Notes under the pieces: generated by a model
Database searches by the model: none
Told to the model about the DNA's origin: nothing
The model's input: the letters and a program-made list of their open reading frames with translations, nothing else
Made by a program: the position numbers and the translations under genes
Part shown: positions 8,734 to 61,054 of the stretch, piece after piece
Layout: the number at the start of each line of letters is the position of its first letter
Position numbering within the stretch: position 1 is the first letter of the stretch
DNA from: Mobula hypostoma
Lineage: Eukaryota
Reading direction: 5' to 3'
DNA length: 64,000 nucleotides
Assembly: GCF_963921235.1 (NCBI RefSeq)
Contig: NC_086097.1
Coordinates: forward strand, 154,878,001-154,942,000

Positions 8734-8787
8734 CTTTTCACCCTTCTCACCTGGTGGACCTGCCTCTCCTTTAATACCAGGGTCACC
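8734..8787 (-). CDS. COL22A1: Collagen XXII alpha-1 exon, 54 nt, GDPGIKGEAGPPGEKGEK
   Basis: ttctag acceptor, gtaaga donor, six perfect Gly-X-Y triplets, phase 0-0. Confidence 0.92.
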
Positions 8788-23565: not shown

Positions 23566-23619
23566 CGGTTCTCCTTTCTGTCCTTTAGGACCATATGTTC
23601 CCATTTTGCCAGGTTCTCC
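23566..23619 (-). CDS. COL22A1: Collagen XXII alpha-1 exon, 54 nt, GEPGKMGTYGPKGQKGEP
   Basis: tggcag acceptor, gtaagt donor, six Gly-X-Y triplets, phase 0-0. Confidence 0.92.
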
Positions 23620-37476: not shown

Positions 37477-37521
37477 CTTTGGGCCTCTGGGTCCTTGAAA
37501 ACCAGGGAAGCCCTGATCACC
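37477..37521 (-). CDS. COL22A1: Collagen XXII alpha-1 exon, 45 nt, GDQGFPGFQGPRGPK
   Basis: tcacag acceptor, gtcagt donor, five Gly-X-Y triplets, phase 0-0. Confidence 0.92.
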
Positions 37522-45700: not shown

Positions 45701-45835
45701 TCTGAATACTATGCAATGTGAAAAATGAATGCTTTCCAATCAAACAGGTCAGTGTCTAGAATAACTGATGTACAATCACTTTTAATAAACAATTTTAATT
45801 ACTCTTTTCCAGATGGCAAATAGGATACTACTCAC

Positions 45836-46111
45836 ATCAATTGGAACACTGTCGTACAGGCGTTTGCCAATGACTGTTTTTCCTTGGATATTAATGTTCT
45901 CCCGTTCTTCCATTGGCAGGGTATCAATGAGCTTACAGTCGATGTAGAGGGAAACACTATCCGACTGAATACTCAGTGCCATCTTGTGCCAGTTGCGATC
46001 AAACAAGCTGCTGACTTCTCTGTTTCTGAATACAGTCCTCACAGCATCTTTCCTCAGTCCCACTGCATTATATTCCACAGCTTTGTTTTCACCATCCAAA
46101 CGAATGGATAC
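45836..46111 (-). CDS. COL22A1: Collagen XXII alpha-1 exon, 276 nt, TSPN/laminin-G domain (VSIRLDGENKAVEYNAVG...GKTVIGKRLYDSVPID)
   Basis: attcag acceptor, gtgagt donor, 92 codons, phase 0-0; strongly matches the recalled COL22A1 TSPN sequence. Confidence 0.97.
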
Positions 46112-47349
46112 CTGAATAAATAGAAATTTATCATTAAAAAGATATCATATTTCAGACATGGACCACTGATATCCTGATTCACTCATCACCAATGGCCTGT
46201 GACTACATGTGCATCATTCCATTTCCGGACCTCTATATCCTTAAGTTAAATACCAGCTAACGCTGTGACAACGTCATTGTCTTGCTGTCTCTCAAAATAG
46301 CTGATGGTCACAAAACTCTGAAGAAGTTAAGGATAGGCTGTGCAACAATTCTCTTAACTTTGATTTCATCCTTTATTCTGCCCTTTTCTGAAGTTTTTCA
46401 GTCACGCTTGAGCATAATTTTAAGGACATTCACCTCCTTCCTTTCTTGTACTTAAACTTGAGTTCCAACTAATGATTTAAACATGGAGATCATTGGCAAA
46501 GCCTGAATAGAGTCATAGAGCGTTATAGCACAGAAACAAGCCATTCAGTCCATCTCGTCCGTGCTGAACTGTTATTTTGCCTCGTCCTATCGACCTGCAC
46601 CTGGACCACAACCTTCCATACCCCTCTCATCCATGTTCTTATCCAAATTTATCTTAAATGTTGCAATCAAACCCACATCCACCACTTCTGCTGGCAGATC
46701 ATTGACTTATTTATTATATTATTTATCTATTCATTGAGATAGAGTGTAGAATTGGCCCTTCTGTTCCTTCAAGTCACATTATCCCTGATTTAATCCTAGC
46801 CCAATATTGGTACAATTTACATTCTACTCTCACACAACTCTACGAGTGTCATCTTTGCTGTTCATGGAATATAAAACCATGTAGGGTAGAAGATGGGCCA
46901 CTGATGTGATTCCATCAGTTTTTCTTGGTGTCAATCAAGTTAAATGACTTCAAATAAGTTAGCAGCCAACATTCAGGCTACAAAGAACAGTTGTATGGGG
47001 GAAGAGGAAGATTCATAGATACCATCAAACCCATGGTGAGATGGATGATATAGCAAGTCTATTGTCCCCAAAGCATGGGTGCAAGAATTCTACTCCACCC
47101 ATAACTGCACAGCTCGATGGATACGATTAAAATATTCCTGTTTCAGCTTGGTACAGCGAGAATCACAACTGCTTCCAGGGTCTGTGCAGGTAATAAAGAT
47201 GTCTTAATGTGATTGAATAAACTACTTCTGCTTAAAGTCGACTGAAACAATGCTAATTCTAGTCATATTTCTTGCCAGATTCCACATAGGAAGCGTAGCT
47301 GTAAATCAGGATACAGGTGCATTTAAGGAAATGGCAATTATGACTCCCA

Positions 47350-50300
47350 GACTCCCGGGAGTCTCAGATGGTATGTTGCCTCCCTGGTGCCGGGGTCCGG
47401 GACATCTCAGATCGGGTGCAGGTTATTCTCGAGAGGGAGGGCAAGAATCCAGATATTGTAGCCCATGTAGGGACCAACGACATGGGTAGGAAGAGTGAGG
47501 GGGTCCTGTGTAGTGAGTTCAAGGAGTTAGGTGCGAAGCTGAAGGGCAGGACATCCAGGGTAACAATCTCAGGATTGCTACCTCTGCCACGTGCGAGTGA
47601 GAGGTAGAACAGAAGGATTATACAGACCAATACGTGGCTGAGAGGATGGTCCAGGAGGGAGGGCTTCAGGGTTTTAGATAATTGGGCTTTGTTCCAGGGA
47701 AGGAGGGATCTGTTCCGACGGGACCATTTACACCTGAACTGGAGGGGTACTAACATTCTTGCAGGAAAGTTTGCTAGTGCTGCTTGGGGGGGGGGGTTTA
47801 ATCTAAATTTGCAGGGGGCAGGGATCCAGAATGTGAGAGAGGATAGCGAGATAGAAACATACAAAATAGGTGCAGGAGTAGGCCATTCGGCCCTTCGAGC
47901 CTGCACCACCATTTATTATGATCATGGCTGATCATCCAACTCAGAATCCCGCCCCAGCCTTCCCTCCATACCCCCTGATCCACGTAGCCACAAGGGCCAT
48001 ATCTAACTCCCTCTTAAATATAGCCAATGAACTGGCCTCAATTGTTTCCTGTGGCAGAGAATTCCACAGATTCACCACTCTCTGTGTGAAGAAGTTTTTC
48101 CTAATCTCGGTCCTAAAAGGCTTCCCCTTTATCCTCAAACTGTGACCCCTTGTTCTGGACTTCCCCAACATCGGGAACAATCTTCCTGCATCTAGCCTGT
48201 CCAATCCCTTTAGGATTTTATACGTTTCAATCAGATCCCCCCTCAATCTTCTAAATTCCAATGAGTACAAGCCCAGTTCATCCAGCCTTTCTTCATATGA
48301 AAGTCCTGCCATCCCAGGAATCAATCTGGTGAACCTTCTTTGTACTCCCTCTATGGCAAGGATGTCTTTCCTCAGATTAGGGGACCAGAACTGCACACAA
48401 TACTCCAGGTGTGGTCTCACCAAGCCCTTGTACAACTGCAGTAGTACCTCCCTGCTCCTGTACTCGAATCCTCTCGCTATAAATGCCAGCATACCATTTG
48501 CCTTTTTCACCGCCTGCTGTACCTGCATGCCCACTTTCAATGACTGGTGTATAATGACACCCAGGTCTCGTTGCACCTCCCCTTTTCCTAATCGGCCACC
48601 ATTCAGATAATAATCTGTTTTCCTATTTTTGCCACCAAAGTGGATAACTTCACATTTATCCACATTAAATTGCATCTGCCATGAATTTGCCCACTCACCC
48701 AACCTATCCAAGTCACTCTGCATCCTCTTAGCATCCTCTTCACAGCTAACACTGCCACCCAGCTTTGTGTCATCCGCAAACTTGCAGATGCTGCATTTAA
48801 TTTCCTCATCCAAGTCATTAATATATATTGTAAACAACTGGGGTCCCAGCACTGAGCCTTGCAGTACCCCACTAGTCACCGCCTGCCATTCTGAAAAGGT
48901 CCCGTTTATTCCCACTCTTTGCTTCCTGTCTGCTAACCAATTCTCCATCCATATCAATACCTTACCCCCAATACCGTGTGCTTTAAGTTTGCACACTAAT
49001 CTCCTGTGTGGGGCCTTGTCAAAAGCCTTTTGAAAATCCAAATATACCACATCCACTGGTTCTCCCCTATCCACTCTACTAGTTACATCCTCAAAAAATT
49101 CTATGAGATTCATCAGACATGATTTTCCTTTCACAAATCCATGCTGACTTTGTCCGATGATTTCACCGCTTTCCAAATGTGCTGTTATCACATCTTTGAT
49201 AACTGACTCCAGCAGTTTCCCCACCACCGACATTAGGCTAACCGGTCTATAATTCCCCGGTTCCTCTCTCCCTCCTTTTTTAAAAAGTGGAGTTACATTA
49301 GCCACCCTCCAATCCTCAGGAACTAGTCCAGAATCTAACGAGTTTTGAAAAATTATCACTAATGCATCCACTATTTCTTGGGCTACTTCCTTAAGCACTC
49401 TAGGATGCAGACCATCTGGCCCTGGGGATTTATCTGCCTTCAATCCCTTCAATTTACCTAACACCACTTCCCTACTAACATGTATTTCCCTCAGTTCCTC
49501 CATCTCACTGGACCCTCTGTCCCTTACTATTTCTGGAAGATTATTTATGTCCTCCTTAGTGAAGACAGAACCAAAGTAATTATTCAATTGGTCTGCCATG
49601 TCCTTGCTCCCCATAATCAATTCACCTGTTTCTGTCTGTAGGGGACCTACATTTGTCTTTACCAGTCTTTTCCTTTTTACATATCTATAAAAGCTTTTAC
49701 AGTCAGTTTTTATGTTCCCTGCCAGTTTTCTCTCATAATCTTTTTTCACCTTCCTAATTAAGCCCTTTGTCCTCCTCTGCTGAACTCTGAATTTCTCCCA
49801 GTCCTCAGGTGAACCACTTTCTCTGGCTAATTTGTATGCTTCTTCTTTGGAATTGATACTATTCCTAATTTCTCTTGTCAGCCACGGGTGCACTACCTTC
49901 CTTGATTTATTCTTTTGCCAAACTGGGATGAACAATTGTTGTAGTTCATCCATGCAACCTTTAAATGCTTGCCATTGCATATCCACTGTCAATCCTTTAA
50001 GTGTCATTTGCCCATCTATCTTAGCTAATTCACGTCTCATACCTTCAAAGTTACCCCTCTTTAAGTTCAGAACCTTTGTTTCTGAATTAACTATGTCACT
50101 CTCCATCTTAATGAAGAATTCCACCATATTATGGTCACTCTTACCCAAGGGGCCTCTCACGACAAGATTGCTAATTAACCCTTCCTCATTGCTCAAAACC
50201 CAGCCCAGAATAGCCTGCTCTCTAGTTGGTTCCTCGACATGTTGGTTCAAAAAACCATCCCGCATACATTCCAAGAAATTCTCTTCCTCAGCACCTTTAC

Positions 50301-53300
50301 CAATGTGGTTCACCCAATCTACATGTAGATGAAGTATAAAGGACAGGTGGGGACTACACGGTTCCAGGATATTAAGTGTGAAGTAGAGAAAGATGAGGCA
50401 GAACGAGTGATAAGGATATGTGCAGAGGGATGGTCTGATGGAACATGGAGTTAAATGTGCAGAAAGAGTAAGTAAATTTAAGAAGGACAACAAAATTCAA
50501 GGGGCGTATAGCCCGGTGAGAGTTCGAGGAGCTGGGTTATGCACAATAGGTCGCGATTTAAGCAGAGAGAGGAGAAATGGGTTAAAAATTCTATATCTGA
50601 ATGCGCGAAGCGTCAGAAATAAGGCGGATGAGCTTGAAGCTCAGGTGCGAATGGGTAACTATGACGTTGTTGGGATAACGGAGACATGGCTGCAGGGGGA
50701 TCAGACCTGGGAATTGAATGTACAAGGGTATACGTGCTATCGAAGGGACAGAAAGGTGGGCAGAGGGGGTGGGGTGGCCCTGTTGGTGAGGAATGAGATT
50801 CAGTCCCTTGCAAGGGGGAACATAGAATCAGGAGAAGTAGAATCAGTGTGGATAGAACTGAGGAACAGTAAGGGTAAAAAGACCCTAATAGGTGTTATCT
50901 ACAGGCCCCAAAACAGTAGCATCGATATTGGGTGCAAGTTGAATAGGGAGTTAACAATGGCATGTGGCAAAGGAAATGTCACAGTAGTTATGGGGGATTT
51001 CAACATGCAGGTGAACTGGGAAAATCAGGTTGGTACTGGACCCCAGGGTAGGGAGTTTGTAGAGTGACTACGGGATGCATTTTTGGAGCAGCTTGTATGA
51101 GAGCCGACCAGGGATGAGGCTATTCTGGATTTAGTGTTGTGCAATGAACAGGATTTGATAAGTGATCTTGAAGTAAAGGAGCCATGAGGAGATAGTGACC
51201 ATAATATGATAAGTTTTTATACGCAAGTTGAGAGGGATAAGGGCAGATCAAAAGTGTCAGTATTGCAGTTGAACAAAGGAGACTATGGAGCCATGAGGGA
51301 GGAGCTGGCCAAAGTTGACTGGTCGGATATCCTAGCAGAAAAGACAGTGGAACAGCAATGGCAGGTATTCTTGGGAATAGTGCACAAGGTGCAAAATCAG
51401 TTCATCCCCTGGAGAAGGAAGGATTCAAAGGGGGGAAAGTGGCCACAGTGGTTGACAAAGGAAGTCAGAGATAGCATAGCATTAAAAAAAGTATAACAGA
51501 GCTAAGGTGAGTGGGAAGACGGATGATTGGGAAATTTTTAAGGAGCAACAGAACTTAACTAAAAAGGCAATACGGGGAGAAAAAATGAGGTATGAATGCA
51601 AGCTAGCTAGGAATATAAAGGAGGATAGGAAAAGTTTTTTTAGGTATGTGAAGAGAAGGAAGATAGCTAAGAACAATGTTGGGCCCTTGAAGAATGAATT
51701 GGGAGAAATTGTTATGGGAAACAGAGAAATGGCAGACGAATTTAATAAGTACTTTGGATCTGTCTTCACTAGGGAAGACACAAGCAATCTCCCAGATGTA
51801 TGGATGGGCCAAGGACATAGGGTAACAGAGGAACTGAAACAGATTAACATTAGGAAGGAAACAGTGATGAGTAGACTAATGGGACTGAAGGCTAACAAAT
51901 CCCCGGGTCCAGATGGTCTGCATCCTAGGGTACTAAAGGAGATGGCTCTGGAAATTGCGGATGCATTAGTGAACATTTTCCAATGTTCCTTAGATTCAGG
52001 ATCAGTTCCTGAGGATTGGTGAATGGCTAATGTTATCCCACTTTTTAAGAAAGGAGGGAGGGAGAAAACGGAGAACTATCGCCCTGTTAGCCTAACATCA
52101 GTAGTGGGGAAGATGCTAGAGTCCATTATTAAAGATGAAATAGCAGCATATCTTGATAGCAGTGATAGGATTGGGCCGAGCCAGCATGGATTTACCAAAG
52201 GCAAATCATGCTTGACTAATCTATTGGAGTTTTTCAAGGATGTAACCAGGGAGATAGACGCGGGAGATCCTGTGGATGTGGTGTACCTTGACTTTCAGAA
52301 GGCATTTGATAAGGTACCACATAGGAGATTGGTGGGTAAAATCAGAGCTCATGGCATTGGGGGGAGGATATTGACATGGATAGAAAACTGGTTGGCAGAT
52401 AGAAAGCAAAGGGTAGTAGTGAATGGGTGTTTCTCGGAATGGCAGGTGGTGATTAGTGGGGTGCCACAGGGCTCGGTATTGGGACCTCAGCTGTTTACGA
52501 TTTACATCAATGATTTAGAGGAAGGCATTGTGAATAACATCAGCAAGTTTGCTGATGATACTAAGTTGGGTGGCAGTGTGACATGTGATGAGGATGTTAG
52601 GAGAATTCAAGGTGACTTGGAAAGGCTGAGTGAGTGGGCAGAAACTTGGCAGATGGCGTTTAATGTGAATAAGTGTGAGGTTATTCACTTTGGGAGCAAG
52701 AACAGGAAGGCAGATTATTATCTGAACGGTGTGGAGTTAGGTAAGGGAGAAATACAAAGAGATCTCGGAGTACTTGTTCATCAGTCTCTGAAGGTGAATG
52801 AGCAAGTGCAGCAGGCAGTGAAGAAGGCTAATGGAAAGTTGGCCTTTATTACAAAGGGAATTGAGTACAAGAGCAAGGAAATCCTTTTGCATTTGTACAG
52901 GGCCCTGGTGAGACCACACCTGGAGTATTGTGTGCAGTTTTGGTCTCCAGGGTTAAGGAAGGACATCCTGGCTGTGGAGGAGGTGCAGCGTAGGTTCACT
53001 AGGTTAATTCCTGGGATGTCCAGACTGTCTTATGCAGAGAGGTTAGAGAGACTGGGCTTGTACACGCTGGAATTAAGGAGATTGAGGGGGGATCTGATTG
53101 AGACATATAAGATTATTAAGGGATTGGGCAAGATAGAGGCAGGAAATATGTTCCAGATGCTGGGAGAGTCCAGTACCAGAGGGCATGGTTTAAGAATAAG
53201 GGGTAGGTCATTTAGGACAGAGTTGAGGAGGAACTTCTTCTCCCAGAGAGTTGTGGAGGTGTGGAACGCGCTGCCTCAGAAGGCAGTGGAGGCCAATTCT

Positions 53301-57545: not shown

Positions 57546-59388
57546 AACTGAAGGAAGAGCTAGTAAGGGATTTGACAGTTGGAGGGGGAGGGGGAGATGC
57601 AAAATGATAGGAGAAGACAGGAGGGGGAGGGATGGAGCCAGGAGCTGGACAGGTGATAGGCAAAAGGGATATGAGAGGATCATGGGACAGGAGGTCCGGG
57701 AAGAAAGACAAGGCGGGGGGGGGGACCCAGAGGATGGGCAAGGGGTATAGTCAGAGGGACAGAGGGAGAAAAAGGACAGTGAGAGAAAGAATGTGTGTAT
57801 AAAAATAAATAACAGATGGGGTACCAGGGGGAGGTGGGGCATTAGCGGAAGTTAGAGAAGTCGATGTTCATGCCATCAGGTTGGAGGCTACCCAGACGGA
57901 ATATAAGGTGTTGTTCCTCCAACCTGAGTGTGGCTTCATCTTTACAGTAGAGGAGGCCGTGGATAGACATTTCAGAATGGGAATGGGATGTGGAATTAAA
58001 ATGTGTGGCCACTGGGAGATTCTGCTTTCTCTGGCGGACAGAGCGTAGATGTTCAGCAAAGCGGTCTCCCAGTCTGCGTCGGGTCTCGCCAATATATAAA
58101 AGGCCACATCGGGAGCACCGGACGCAGTATATCACCCCAGCCAACTCACAGGTGAAGTGTTGCCTCACCTGGAAGGACTGTTTGGGGCCCTGAATGGTGG
58201 TAAGGGAGGAAGTGTAAGGGCATGTGTAGCACTTGTTCCGCTTACACGGATAAGTGCCAGGAGGGAGATCAGTGGGGAGGGATGGGGGGGACGAATGGAC
58301 AAGGGAGTTGCATAGGGAGCAATCCCTGCGGAATGCAGAGGGGGGGGGAAGGGAAAGATGTGCTTAGTGGTGGGATCCCATTGGAGGTGGCGGAAGTTAC
58401 AGAGAATAATATGTTGGACCCGGAGGCTGGTGGGGTGGTAGGTGAGGACCAGGGGAACCCTATTCCTGGTGGGGTGGCGGGAGGATGGAGCAGATGTACG
58501 TGAAATGGGGGAGATGCGTTTAAGACCAGAGTTGATAGTGGAGGAAGGGAAGCCCCTTTCTTTAAAAAAGGAAGACATCTCCGTCGTCCTAGAATGAAAA
58601 GCCTCACCCTGAGAGCAGATGCGGCGGAGACGGAGGAATTACGAGAAGGGGATGGTGTTTTTGCAAGAGACAGGGTGAGAAGAGGAATCCGTGTAAGCGG
58701 AACAAGGGCTACACATGCCCTTACACTTCCTCCCTTACCACCATTCAGGGCCCCAGACAGTCCTTCCAGGTGAGGCAACACTTCACCTGTGAGTCGGCTG
58801 GGGTGATATACTGCATCCGGTGCTCCCGATGTGGCCTTTTATATATTGGCGAGACCCGACGCAGACTGGGAGACCGCTTTGCTGAACATTTATGCTCTGT
58901 CCGCCAGAGAAAGCAGGATCTCCCAGTGGCCACACATTTTAATTCCACATCCCATTCCCATTCTGACATGTCTATCCACGGCCTCCTCTACTGTAAAGAT
59001 GAAGCCACACTCAGGTTGGAGGAACAACACCTTATATTCCGTCTGGGTAGCCTCCAACCTGATGGCATGAACATCGACTTCTCTAACTTCCGCTAATGCC
59101 CCACCTCCCCCTCGTACCCCATCTGTTACTTATTTTTATACACACATTCTTTCTCTCACTCTCCTTTTTCTCCCTCTGTCCCTCTGAATATACCCCTTGC
59201 CCTTCCTCTGGGTCCCCCCCCCTTGTCTTTCTTCCCGGACCTCCTGTCCCATGATCCTCTCATATCCCTTTTGCCAATCACCTGTCCAGCTCTCGGCTCC
59301 ATCCCTCCCCCTCCTGTCTTCTCCTATCATTTTGGATCTCCCCCTCCCCCTCCAACTTTCAAATCCCTTACTCACTCTTCCTTCAGTT

Positions 59389-59424: not shown

Positions 59425-60082
59425 GCACCTCTTCCTACAGATGCTGCCTGGCCTGCTGCATTCACCAGCAACTTTTATGTGTGTTGCTTGAATTTCCAGC
59501 ATCTGCAGAATTCCTGTTGTTTGCGTTTTTACTTCACTAGTGATGCTGATTCTACCACTATTTCTGCCTTTCAATCTCTCCTGAAAATACTTCAGTCAGG
59601 AAACTTTTGTTCCCAAACCAATCCAAATATGAACCAAGTCTTGCTTATGATTTTTATTCTGCATTCTATAAGTTATTAAATTCCTCCACAACTGCACATC
59701 AAGCTACTCTTGAAGGAAATACATAGAATGCTGGCATTGATGATGTTATCAGAACAATAACAGATGGAATTTAATTCAGGTGTGTGAGTTTATGCATTTT
59801 GTGATCACTAATAAGGGAAAGAGATACATAGAGATCGATCATACCCTGAGGAGTATTGAGGAATAGAGGGAACAGTGTACAAGTTCAAGTTTCATTTAAA
59901 TGTGCAGCATGTGTAGAAAAGGCGATAAAGGCATATGAGGTACTTGTCTTCATTAACTCCTGTGATAGTTTATAAGCACTGGGAGGTTATGGAACAACTT
60001 GATAAAACATTAGTTATGCCATTGCTGGAGTAGTGTGTACATATCTGGTCAGCACACAATTGAAAGGACATAACTGTACTGA

Positions 60083-60660
60083 TCGGTTTGGTCACCGGCC
60101 GCTCGACTGTAGTTTTCAGTTGGGCGCTGGACGCTCGGGGAGATTTGGCGGGGGCGGCGGGCGCCCGGCGCTCAGCTGGGGGCCGTCATCGAGTGGTTGG
60201 CGACTTGGGCTGCCTCCCCCACTGACTTAGTCTGGTGAGGAGGGTGTGAGGACACCCAGCAGGACTAAAAAAAACAAGACCTGACAAAGGGCGGATGAGC
60301 TCCTTGTGAGCCAACGGCCATCTTCCATGGAAGAGATTAAAGCCTCACCACGTATCTATGAATTGTATGCTATGCACCTAGTTAGAAGAGATATGATGAA
60401 CTTCGGCACTGCACTGTGTGCCTGGACCTGCCCAAGGCCACTGCCTAAGGAAGGGCCAAGCTCGAAGAAGCGGCCGCGGCTGGAGGCCAACACGGCCTTG
60501 GGCTCGAGTTCGGCGGGGGTGGCGGCGGGCGGTGTCAAGATGGCCAGCAAGAACAAACTGGAGGAGAGGCTGTACTCGGTGCTGTTGCAAGATCGAAGAA
60601 GATGGAGGTGCATAGCCACCAACCCTGGATTTGGGACAGCACCCACTGACTCACTGACTG
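60083..60660 (+). mobile_element. Young non-autonomous RTE-type retroinsertion carrying a captured host exon fragment
   Basis: 11-bp TSD AACTGTACTGA at 60072-60082 and 60661-60671; (ACTG/ACTC)n tail; 3' end encodes RTE-like QDRRRWR; CpG-rich. Confidence 0.72.
60410..60589 (+). pseudogene. ZFTRAF1: Circularly permuted fragment of a ZFTRAF1/CYHR1-like first coding exon
   Basis: 60410-60439 encodes [10 protein letters not shown] and 60441-60584 encodes ..[19 protein letters not shown]; in ZFTRAF1/CYHR1 (recalled) the order is [21 protein letters not shown]. Confidence 0.8.
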
Positions 60661-61054
60661 AACTGTACTGAAGGGGATGGAGAGGAGTTTCATCAGTTGT
60701 TGCCTGGGATGGCATACTTCAGTTATGACAGACTGGATAGAATGAGTTTTTTTTTTGGTTGAGAGGATCCCTGATAATGTAAACCTCTCCCCATATCAGA
60801 AGGATTTAAAATGAGAGGGGATGGATTTAAGGATGTCTGGAGAGGATCTGAGGAAACTCCATTTTTACACACAGATTCATTGGAATCTGAATGAGAGAGT
60901 GATGGAAACACAAACTCTCCCAACATTGAAATAATATCTAATTGACCACATAAACCATTGGATACAGAAACCTAAACACCAATGCTAGTATATAGGATTA
61001 GTATGGGTGGTTGCTTGATAGTCCGTATATAGATATGACAGGAGAAAGGACTGA

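Follow-up and report, generated by a model that had tools for sequence, protein, structure and literature searches.

The described systems closest to the repeat family reported here are (i) bipartite non-autonomous RTE LINEs, or SIDEs, (ii) circRNA-derived pseudogenes, (iii) non-autonomous retroposons that carry a host first exon, (iv) circle-mediated duplications, and (v) LINE chimeras formed by template jumping or RNA ligation. SIDEs include Bov-A, RTESINE1/2, WALLSI3, and MAR4_MD (PMC5786205) as well as the R2 SIDEs (PMC3414825). The circRNA-derived pseudogenes, of which 33 copies of circRFWD2 are described in the mouse, have a non-colinear order of host exons, exact exon–exon back-splice junctions over several exons, and LTR flanks (PMC4897178). 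SVA_F1, with MAST2 exon 1, and the chimpanzee STK40 SVA_D subfamily were amplified while carrying a host first exon, which was acquired by splicing and sits colinearly at the 5′ end (PMC6139936). Circle-mediated duplications with an AB-to-BA order (PMC7450558) and germline eccDNA insertions (10.64898/2026.09.03.749254) are single-locus events, reported as large in the former source and as mostly intrachromosomal in the latter. Finally, U6/L1, mRNA/L1, and tripartite chimeras consist of a LINE piece to whose 5′ end host RNA has been added (PMC6789731, PMC13174262, PMC2104539).

The window, a 64,000-nucleotide stretch of the Mobula hypostoma genome, contains a retroposon that shares traits with each of these systems and departs from each. 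Like the SIDEs of the cited accounts, it keeps only the 5′ and 3′ ends of a LINE, has a microsatellite tail, shows no tRNA-type head, and was mobilised in trans; unlike them, it has a rotated piece of a host coding exon at the deletion point and a 93-codon frame running from the apparent LINE start to the LINE stop. The passages on SIDEs describe no such cargo, the nearest case being rDNA spacer sequence in one R2/R1 SIDE (PMC5786205, PMC3414825). As in the circRNA pseudogenes, host exon sequence in non-colinear order was amplified in association with a retroelement, but the joint lies inside a single first exon and does not match a splice joint exactly, and the sequence was carried by a LINE derivative of ~900 copies. 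As in SVA_F1, a family spread while carrying a host first exon, although here the exon piece is internal and rotated, and its splice donor was not used. The exact cyclic permutation of the donor recalls circle-mediated duplications, whereas the cargo is only 178 nt long, replaces acceptor sequence, and was subsequently amplified by retrotransposition. The acceptor is not contiguous across the insertion, as it is for an integrated circle: in the LINE itself the two flanks are ~2.9 kb from each other, and an empty form was sought but not found. With the LINE chimeras the element has in common the fusion of host RNA to LINE sequence without long homology, but in this case a rotated insert lies between the two LINE ends, and a family arose from the product. 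The family thereby joins two topics that are usually kept apart, namely circle-like duplication intermediates and exon capture by retroposons. No published description of it was found in searches of mainly open-access literature, as distinct from repeat databases such as Repbase and Dfam. The coordinates of the individual parts are collected in Table 1.

Table 1. Parts of the retroposon copy and neighbouring exons, in positions of the window.
Feature	Positions	Strand	Basis or remark
Full-length, non-autonomous, RTE-type retroposon copy, ~580 nt	60084..60661	+	Extent common to copies
Left target site duplication, 11 bp	60072..60082	+	Identical to 60661-60671
Right target site duplication	60661..60671	+	First base shared with the tail
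5′ fold-back (extreme 5′ end of the LINE plus an inverted copy)	60084..60205	+	Hairpin; inverted matches to the LINE 5′ UTR
LINE 5′ UTR and first codons	60188..60407	+	7-nt and 10-nt deletions relative to most LINE copies
Cargo segment B	60408..60447	+	40 nt close to the 3′ end of ZFTRAF1 exon 1, stopping 4 nt short of the splice donor
Cargo segment A	60448..60585	+	138 nt directly preceding B in the gene
LINE 3′ end (last ORF codons and stop) and (ACTG)n tail	60586..60661	+	Tail-selected loci; alignment
Open frame from the apparent LINE start ATG through the cargo to the LINE C-terminus and stop	60372..60671	+	93 codons typical, 99 here
Collagen Gly-X-Y exons	8734-8787, 23566-23619, 37477-37521	-	Retroposon copy is antisense to them

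The cargo is an exact rotation of one contiguous stretch of ZFTRAF1 (CYHR1) exon 1. Its native-order pattern has a single match in the 3.48-Gb genome (no control hits), and this match is a GC-rich first exon with an ATG and a GT donor. The identity of the gene rests on the product of this source exon, whose top protein matches are from batoids, first Pristis (E 1e-39) and Leucoraja, and not on the 49-residue peptide of the window, for which neither a protein search nor a search of the Atlas returned a match. Exons 2–4 of ZFTRAF1 lie on the same strand 91–158 kb downstream of exon 1. They match this one locus only, and a processed pseudogene or paralog as the source was ruled out. Segment A maps to G000:C5:228091183-228091046, and segment B follows directly after it in the gene. 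Neither segment has a second copy within the 110 kb around the source exon, so a tandem duplication from which the swapped order could have been copied linearly is excluded, an arrangement that would have spoken against the original prediction. Its derivation of the insert from the first coding exon of this gene, with the halves exchanged, is likewise borne out: the locus yields two adjacent hits in swapped order that together cover one contiguous stretch of 178 nt. The limits of 60410-60589 proposed for the insert had to be corrected to 60408-60585. As a separate observation, intron 1 of the gene spans ~91 kb (G000:C5:227999891-228091002) and could prolong the life of an unspliced first exon.

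Relative to the gene, A and B are separated by a 0-nt gap and a 0-nt overlap at the opening point. The break had been placed at a pair of Cys codons, and it does fall at Cys, more precisely inside the first Cys codon of the pair. The Cys-rich piece precedes the basic piece in the window. The cargo is purely exonic and is in the sense orientation with respect to both the ZFTRAF1 mRNA and the LINE. The arrangement was followed in 71 distinct copies from 83 loci, which were picked by similarity or pattern and are therefore biased to well-preserved copies. B precedes A in 70 of these, the remaining one being 5′-truncated and retaining A alone, while neither the native order nor intron sequence occurs in any of the 71. 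The majority letter differs from the gene at only 3 of 178 positions (60444, 60492, and 60557); because of the change at 60444, the last four bases of B could be filler.

The element is built in the order RTE-type LINE 5′ end, cargo, LINE 3′ end, and (ACTG)n tail. The family is a bipartite non-autonomous LINE (SIDE): a LINE 5′ part is combined with the 3′ part and tail of the same LINE, copies are bordered by target site duplications (TSDs), and 5′ truncation is variable, with 5′ ends spread over 60076-60435. Endonuclease and reverse transcriptase (RT) coding capacity is absent from the element, since the ~2.9 kb bearing those domains is gone, and only the chimeric frame remains. The fold-back that makes up the first ~120 nt forms a predicted hairpin with a z of −2.24 (3 of 200 shuffles are as good), and it has no Rfam match above the gathering score that would denote a ribozyme or RNA-gene head.

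Several searches of the genome bear on the size of the family. A DNA search with 60410-60589 gave 927 candidates, of which the 40 that were scored all cover 176–180 of the 180 bases at 91–100%, and a peptide search gave 1071 candidates, of which 150 were scored. A pattern of 24 nt, in which the first base distinguishes the rearranged joint, occurs at 431 places (control hits, 0), a figure that is a minimum copy number. As the same pattern is found in only 14 of 30 copies picked without it, the family is put at ~900 copies. TSDs of at least 8 bp border 30 of 69 copies (2 of the 71 were skipped), compared with 0.6% of shuffled pairs. The expectation that the composite had retrotransposed after its formation thus holds, and a private insertion at the window site is ruled out because the cargo is part of a repeat family with individual TSDs. 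The family probably goes back to one founding event, in which the cargo was captured once. The copies appear to be decaying neutrally at present.

Three observations on individual loci are set apart from these counts. One copy (L130) has a 5′ region in which a short stretch resembling the end of A is joined to the LINE 5′ UTR, which suggests a further template switch. Two copies 100 kb apart and in opposite orientation (L086/L087) have identical alignment scores and the same variant and are probably products of a segmental duplication. Another pair (L090/L091) also shares one variant.

The partner of the family is a LINE with an APE endonuclease (Pfam Exo_endo_phos, E 6e-11), a YADD motif, a single ORF, short UTRs, and a microsatellite tail. 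Its protein homologs have a single ORF of up to ~980 residues with APE and RVT_1 domains, and several are named craniofacial development protein 2, a name that is associated with RTE elements. The LINE is provisionally assigned to the RTE type, as had been predicted for the host element, on the basis of this architecture and of characteristic motifs. Among 30 loci picked by the 75-nt tail that follows the cargo, 28 run upstream into LINE coding sequence and 2 are copies of the family itself. At the other end, 60188-60395 aligns in whole or in part, at 82–92%, to 16 of 17 LINE 5′ loci (BLAST). Two copies (L096 and L097) retain both LINE ends, about 2.9–3.2 kb apart. The majority letters of the family and LINE tails are identical at 66 of 66 columns, and the tails are equally diverged (6.9% for the family and 6.8% for the LINE, over 40 columns); the family therefore spread while its partner LINE was active.

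Two LINE copies (L102 and L110) share the 7-nt 5′ deletion of the family, and L110 also shares its base at 60402; they probably mark the parent subfamily of the retroposon. The partner LINE makes rearranged insertions, as 5′ inversions of the twin-priming type are seen in several of its copies (L095, L099, L101, L103, L108, L115, and L116). The LINE protein encoded at L096:3611-5293 has one match at 91%, the next homologs being only ~45% identical and the named ones among them coming from invertebrates such as a sea spider.

Read against the gene and the LINE, all three joints of the cargo are blunt. This result runs counter to the original prediction, in which a circle was opened at TGCA and inserted by microhomology into an intact RTE derivative. 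The right-hand TGCA, which was taken as one half of a direct repeat, is a product of CpG decay in the window copy: position 60586 belongs to the LINE tail and is C in 55 of 71 copies, which thus lack TGCA, and T in the other 16. Nor are the flanks neighbours in an intact element, since the cargo sits where ~2.9 kb of LINE interior is missing. An empty element was sought with two exact patterns, which may miss diverged copies, and gave 0 matches, while the cargo is present in 11 of 11 sampled loci and, with the same joints, in 18 of 18 copies picked only by the 5′ hairpin. On this evidence, insertion of a circle by microhomology into an intact derivative fails. The near-repeat noted at the internal junction does exist, but it is not the joint itself; in one copy (L139) a later, short deletion has its endpoints in the two near-repeats.

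The joint of the 178-nt cargo has no direct repeat, and a repeat of 2–3 nt appears only if a later loss of 2 nt is assumed. As A starts with AG and B ends just short of the donor, the family joint equals a back-splice product minus 2 nt. A pattern with the complete donor end matched only the gene itself (1 match), and no older subfamily with a different junction was found. Complementarity between the two outer ends of the fragment is not unusual, 23% of windows being equal or better.

The opening point coincides with the exact centre of a 6-nt loop that closes a predicted hairpin of 8 of 9 pairs in exon 1. A centred hairpin as stable as this one is found at 2 of 311 exon-1 coding positions with RNA energies and at 1 of 311 with DNA energies, the site itself included; when a shift of 1 nt is allowed, 6 and 3 of the 311 positions, respectively, are as good. 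This test is post hoc, having been devised after the fold was seen. An opening centred on a hairpin indicates a single-stranded or extruded substrate, and the predicted hairpin would fit single-stranded or extruded DNA equally well as RNA.

The reading that we prefer, in which confidence and doubt are evenly balanced, is that the founder arose when the RT of the LINE copied a single-stranded RNA fragment of exon 1 through exactly one complete turn. The RT would begin at the LINE 3′ end, copy ~75 nt, and then jump without homology into the loop of the exon-1 RNA hairpin. It would then copy A as far as the 5′ end of the fragment, continue at the opposite (3′) end, whether through an end-to-end jump or across the ligated joint of an RNA circle, and copy B until it reached its own starting point. 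Exactly one turn, with neither gap nor overlap, would be made because the enzyme stops on meeting its own cDNA, as we propose. A final jump, onto the LINE RNA not far from its 5′ end, would drop the ~2.9 kb of interior. Alternatively, the RNA could have been cleaved in the hairpin loop and ligated to the ends of the LINE RNA, with an identical product. The founder, which retained the LINE 5′ end and the 3′ recognition tail, was subsequently amplified in trans by the LINE, as is shown by the TSDs, the 5′ truncation, and the equal divergence. A circle-like intermediate is plausible; whether it was DNA or RNA, and covalently closed or copied end to end, can only be inferred.

Capture of RNA, or of a single strand, is favoured because the cargo consists only of exon sequence in the sense orientation, its end lies close to the donor, its joints are blunt, and the point of entry was a loop. 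The blunt joints are as expected for jumping between separate templates, an activity reported for the R2 RT (PMC8857657). In vivo template jumps together with internally deleted elements (PMC3414825) and double jumps (PMC2104539) are also on record, RtcB can join RNA to LINE RNA in ligation chimeras (PMC6789731), and Dong et al. consider that RT may cross open-ended structured RNAs (PMC4897178). Against this, Eickbush and Eickbush judged DNA recombination likelier than template jumps for their deleted R2 elements (PMC3414825). The RNA route calls for a single founder in which three jumps or ligations took place without homology, and the sense orientation taken alone is only a twofold argument for it. 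Patterns and sampled copies within this genome gave no intermediate of such a capture, neither an empty precursor nor an older subfamily with another junction.

The best surviving rival, which we consider possible but unlikely, replaces the RNA fragment with an extrachromosomal DNA circle (microDNA) of ~178 bp from the first exon. It would have been opened once, perhaps at an extruded hairpin (with DNA energies the rank of the hairpin is no worse), and inserted by end joining at a break where a LINE copy also lost ~2.9 kb, with the locus then acting as master. A single cut in a circle gives the exact AB-to-BA order directly (PMC7450558), germline re-integration of circles has been reported (10.64898/2026.09.03.749254), and the 178-nt cargo is within the 100–400 bp of microDNA, which is enriched in exons and promoters (PMC5587290). 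The direct repeats of 2–15 bp that are typical of microDNA ends (PMC5587290), however, are absent here unless the later 2-nt loss is assumed. The outer junctions also lack microhomology, no empty target was found, and both the sense orientation and the end 4 nt from the donor become coincidences.

A further reading links capture to translation. The chimeric frame reads A as the gene does and B in another frame, and it is kept across the element; the 10-nt deletion offsets the 178-nt cargo. Of the 14 LINE copies that have the apparent start ATG, 9 show no stop between it and the endonuclease motif. The frame is open for at least 90 codons in 31 of the 58 family copies with a locatable ATG (none was located in 13 of 71) and in 5 of 12 copies of the hairpin-selected set (6 of 18 were unanchored); CpG stops and frameshifts are common in the inserted copies, in which selection on the frame is not favoured. 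Continuity of the frame, which was recognised post hoc, is suggestive only, because the two phase coincidences that it involves would occur by chance in ~1 in 9 cases. How well the two LINE arms pair at the breakpoints is suggestive as well: over three lengths this pairing ranks in the top 1–3% for the L110 variant, which the family shares, but at 16–36% for the commoner variant. A predicted long stem is formed by the outer arms in 36 of 52 copies and by the inner arms in 17 of 52. It is conceivable, though we regard it as doubtful, that a small circle of exon-1 RNA was opened at its own hairpin tip, fused to paired LINE RNA ends, and spread because an unbroken translated frame aided the uptake of LINE proteins. 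If this were true, the family would be fossil evidence of RNA-circle capture and would also test, in nature, whether trans-mobilisation is coupled to translation.

Back-splicing is a further rival, which we hold to be improbable. It posits a 180-nt circRNA, formed between the exon-1 donor and an AG inside exon 1, that was copied into the LINE by a single round of reverse transcription, two bases being lost later at the joint. The positions of the ends of B and A point this way, circRNA-derived pseudogenes exist (PMC4897178), and we infer that, until the 10-nt deletion occurred, a 180-nt circle would have been read in one frame with the two LINE ends. On the other hand, the acceptor is poor (G at −3 and a pyrimidine fraction of 0.43), the complete-donor pattern matches the gene only, and the extra deletion must have occurred exactly at the joint. 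Least economical of the explanations, and in our estimate very improbable, is capture in swapped order, during repair or reverse transcription, of two linear fragments, neighbours produced by a single cut (either DNA shards or pieces of decaying RNA), with no circle at all, for although the other rearrangements of the founder (the 5′ fold-back and deletions) speak of messy events and blunt joints fit end joining, both pieces of a single cut would have to be captured together, untrimmed, and in the same orientation.

Whichever route was taken, the family demonstrates that part of a conserved coding exon of the host, in rotated order, can be built permanently into a LINE-derived parasite and dispersed with it to ~900 sites. 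Its blunt and unusually well-preserved junctions constrain how non-LTR RTs or repair pathways handle small germline circles. Family copies can confound ZFTRAF1 annotation, read mapping, and circRNA calling in this cartilaginous-fish lineage, and transcribed copies could in principle give sense or antisense RNA against ZFTRAF1. Nothing indicates that the family serves the host or has formed a new gene.

In the window, the retroposon copy is antisense to the three Gly-X-Y exons. Together with a weak laminin-G-like stretch on the minus strand (45785-46144; E 0.002, below the cut-off), these are consistent with a collagen gene with very long introns. No collagen exon was found in the 60 kb to the right of the element (150 of 155 frames in one scan). 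The copy had been described as antisense within a collagen pre-mRNA; the antisense orientation is upheld, and its location within the transcript is putative. The minus strand also holds an open, LINE-like RT frame of 851 codons (47944-50496) and a match to GIY-YIG (57845-58363), a domain associated with Penelope-like elements. To the right of the window, the stretch G000:C1:154942001-154972000 (L118-L120) contains decayed frames of the LTR-retrotransposon type, with protease, RT, RNase H, and integrase.
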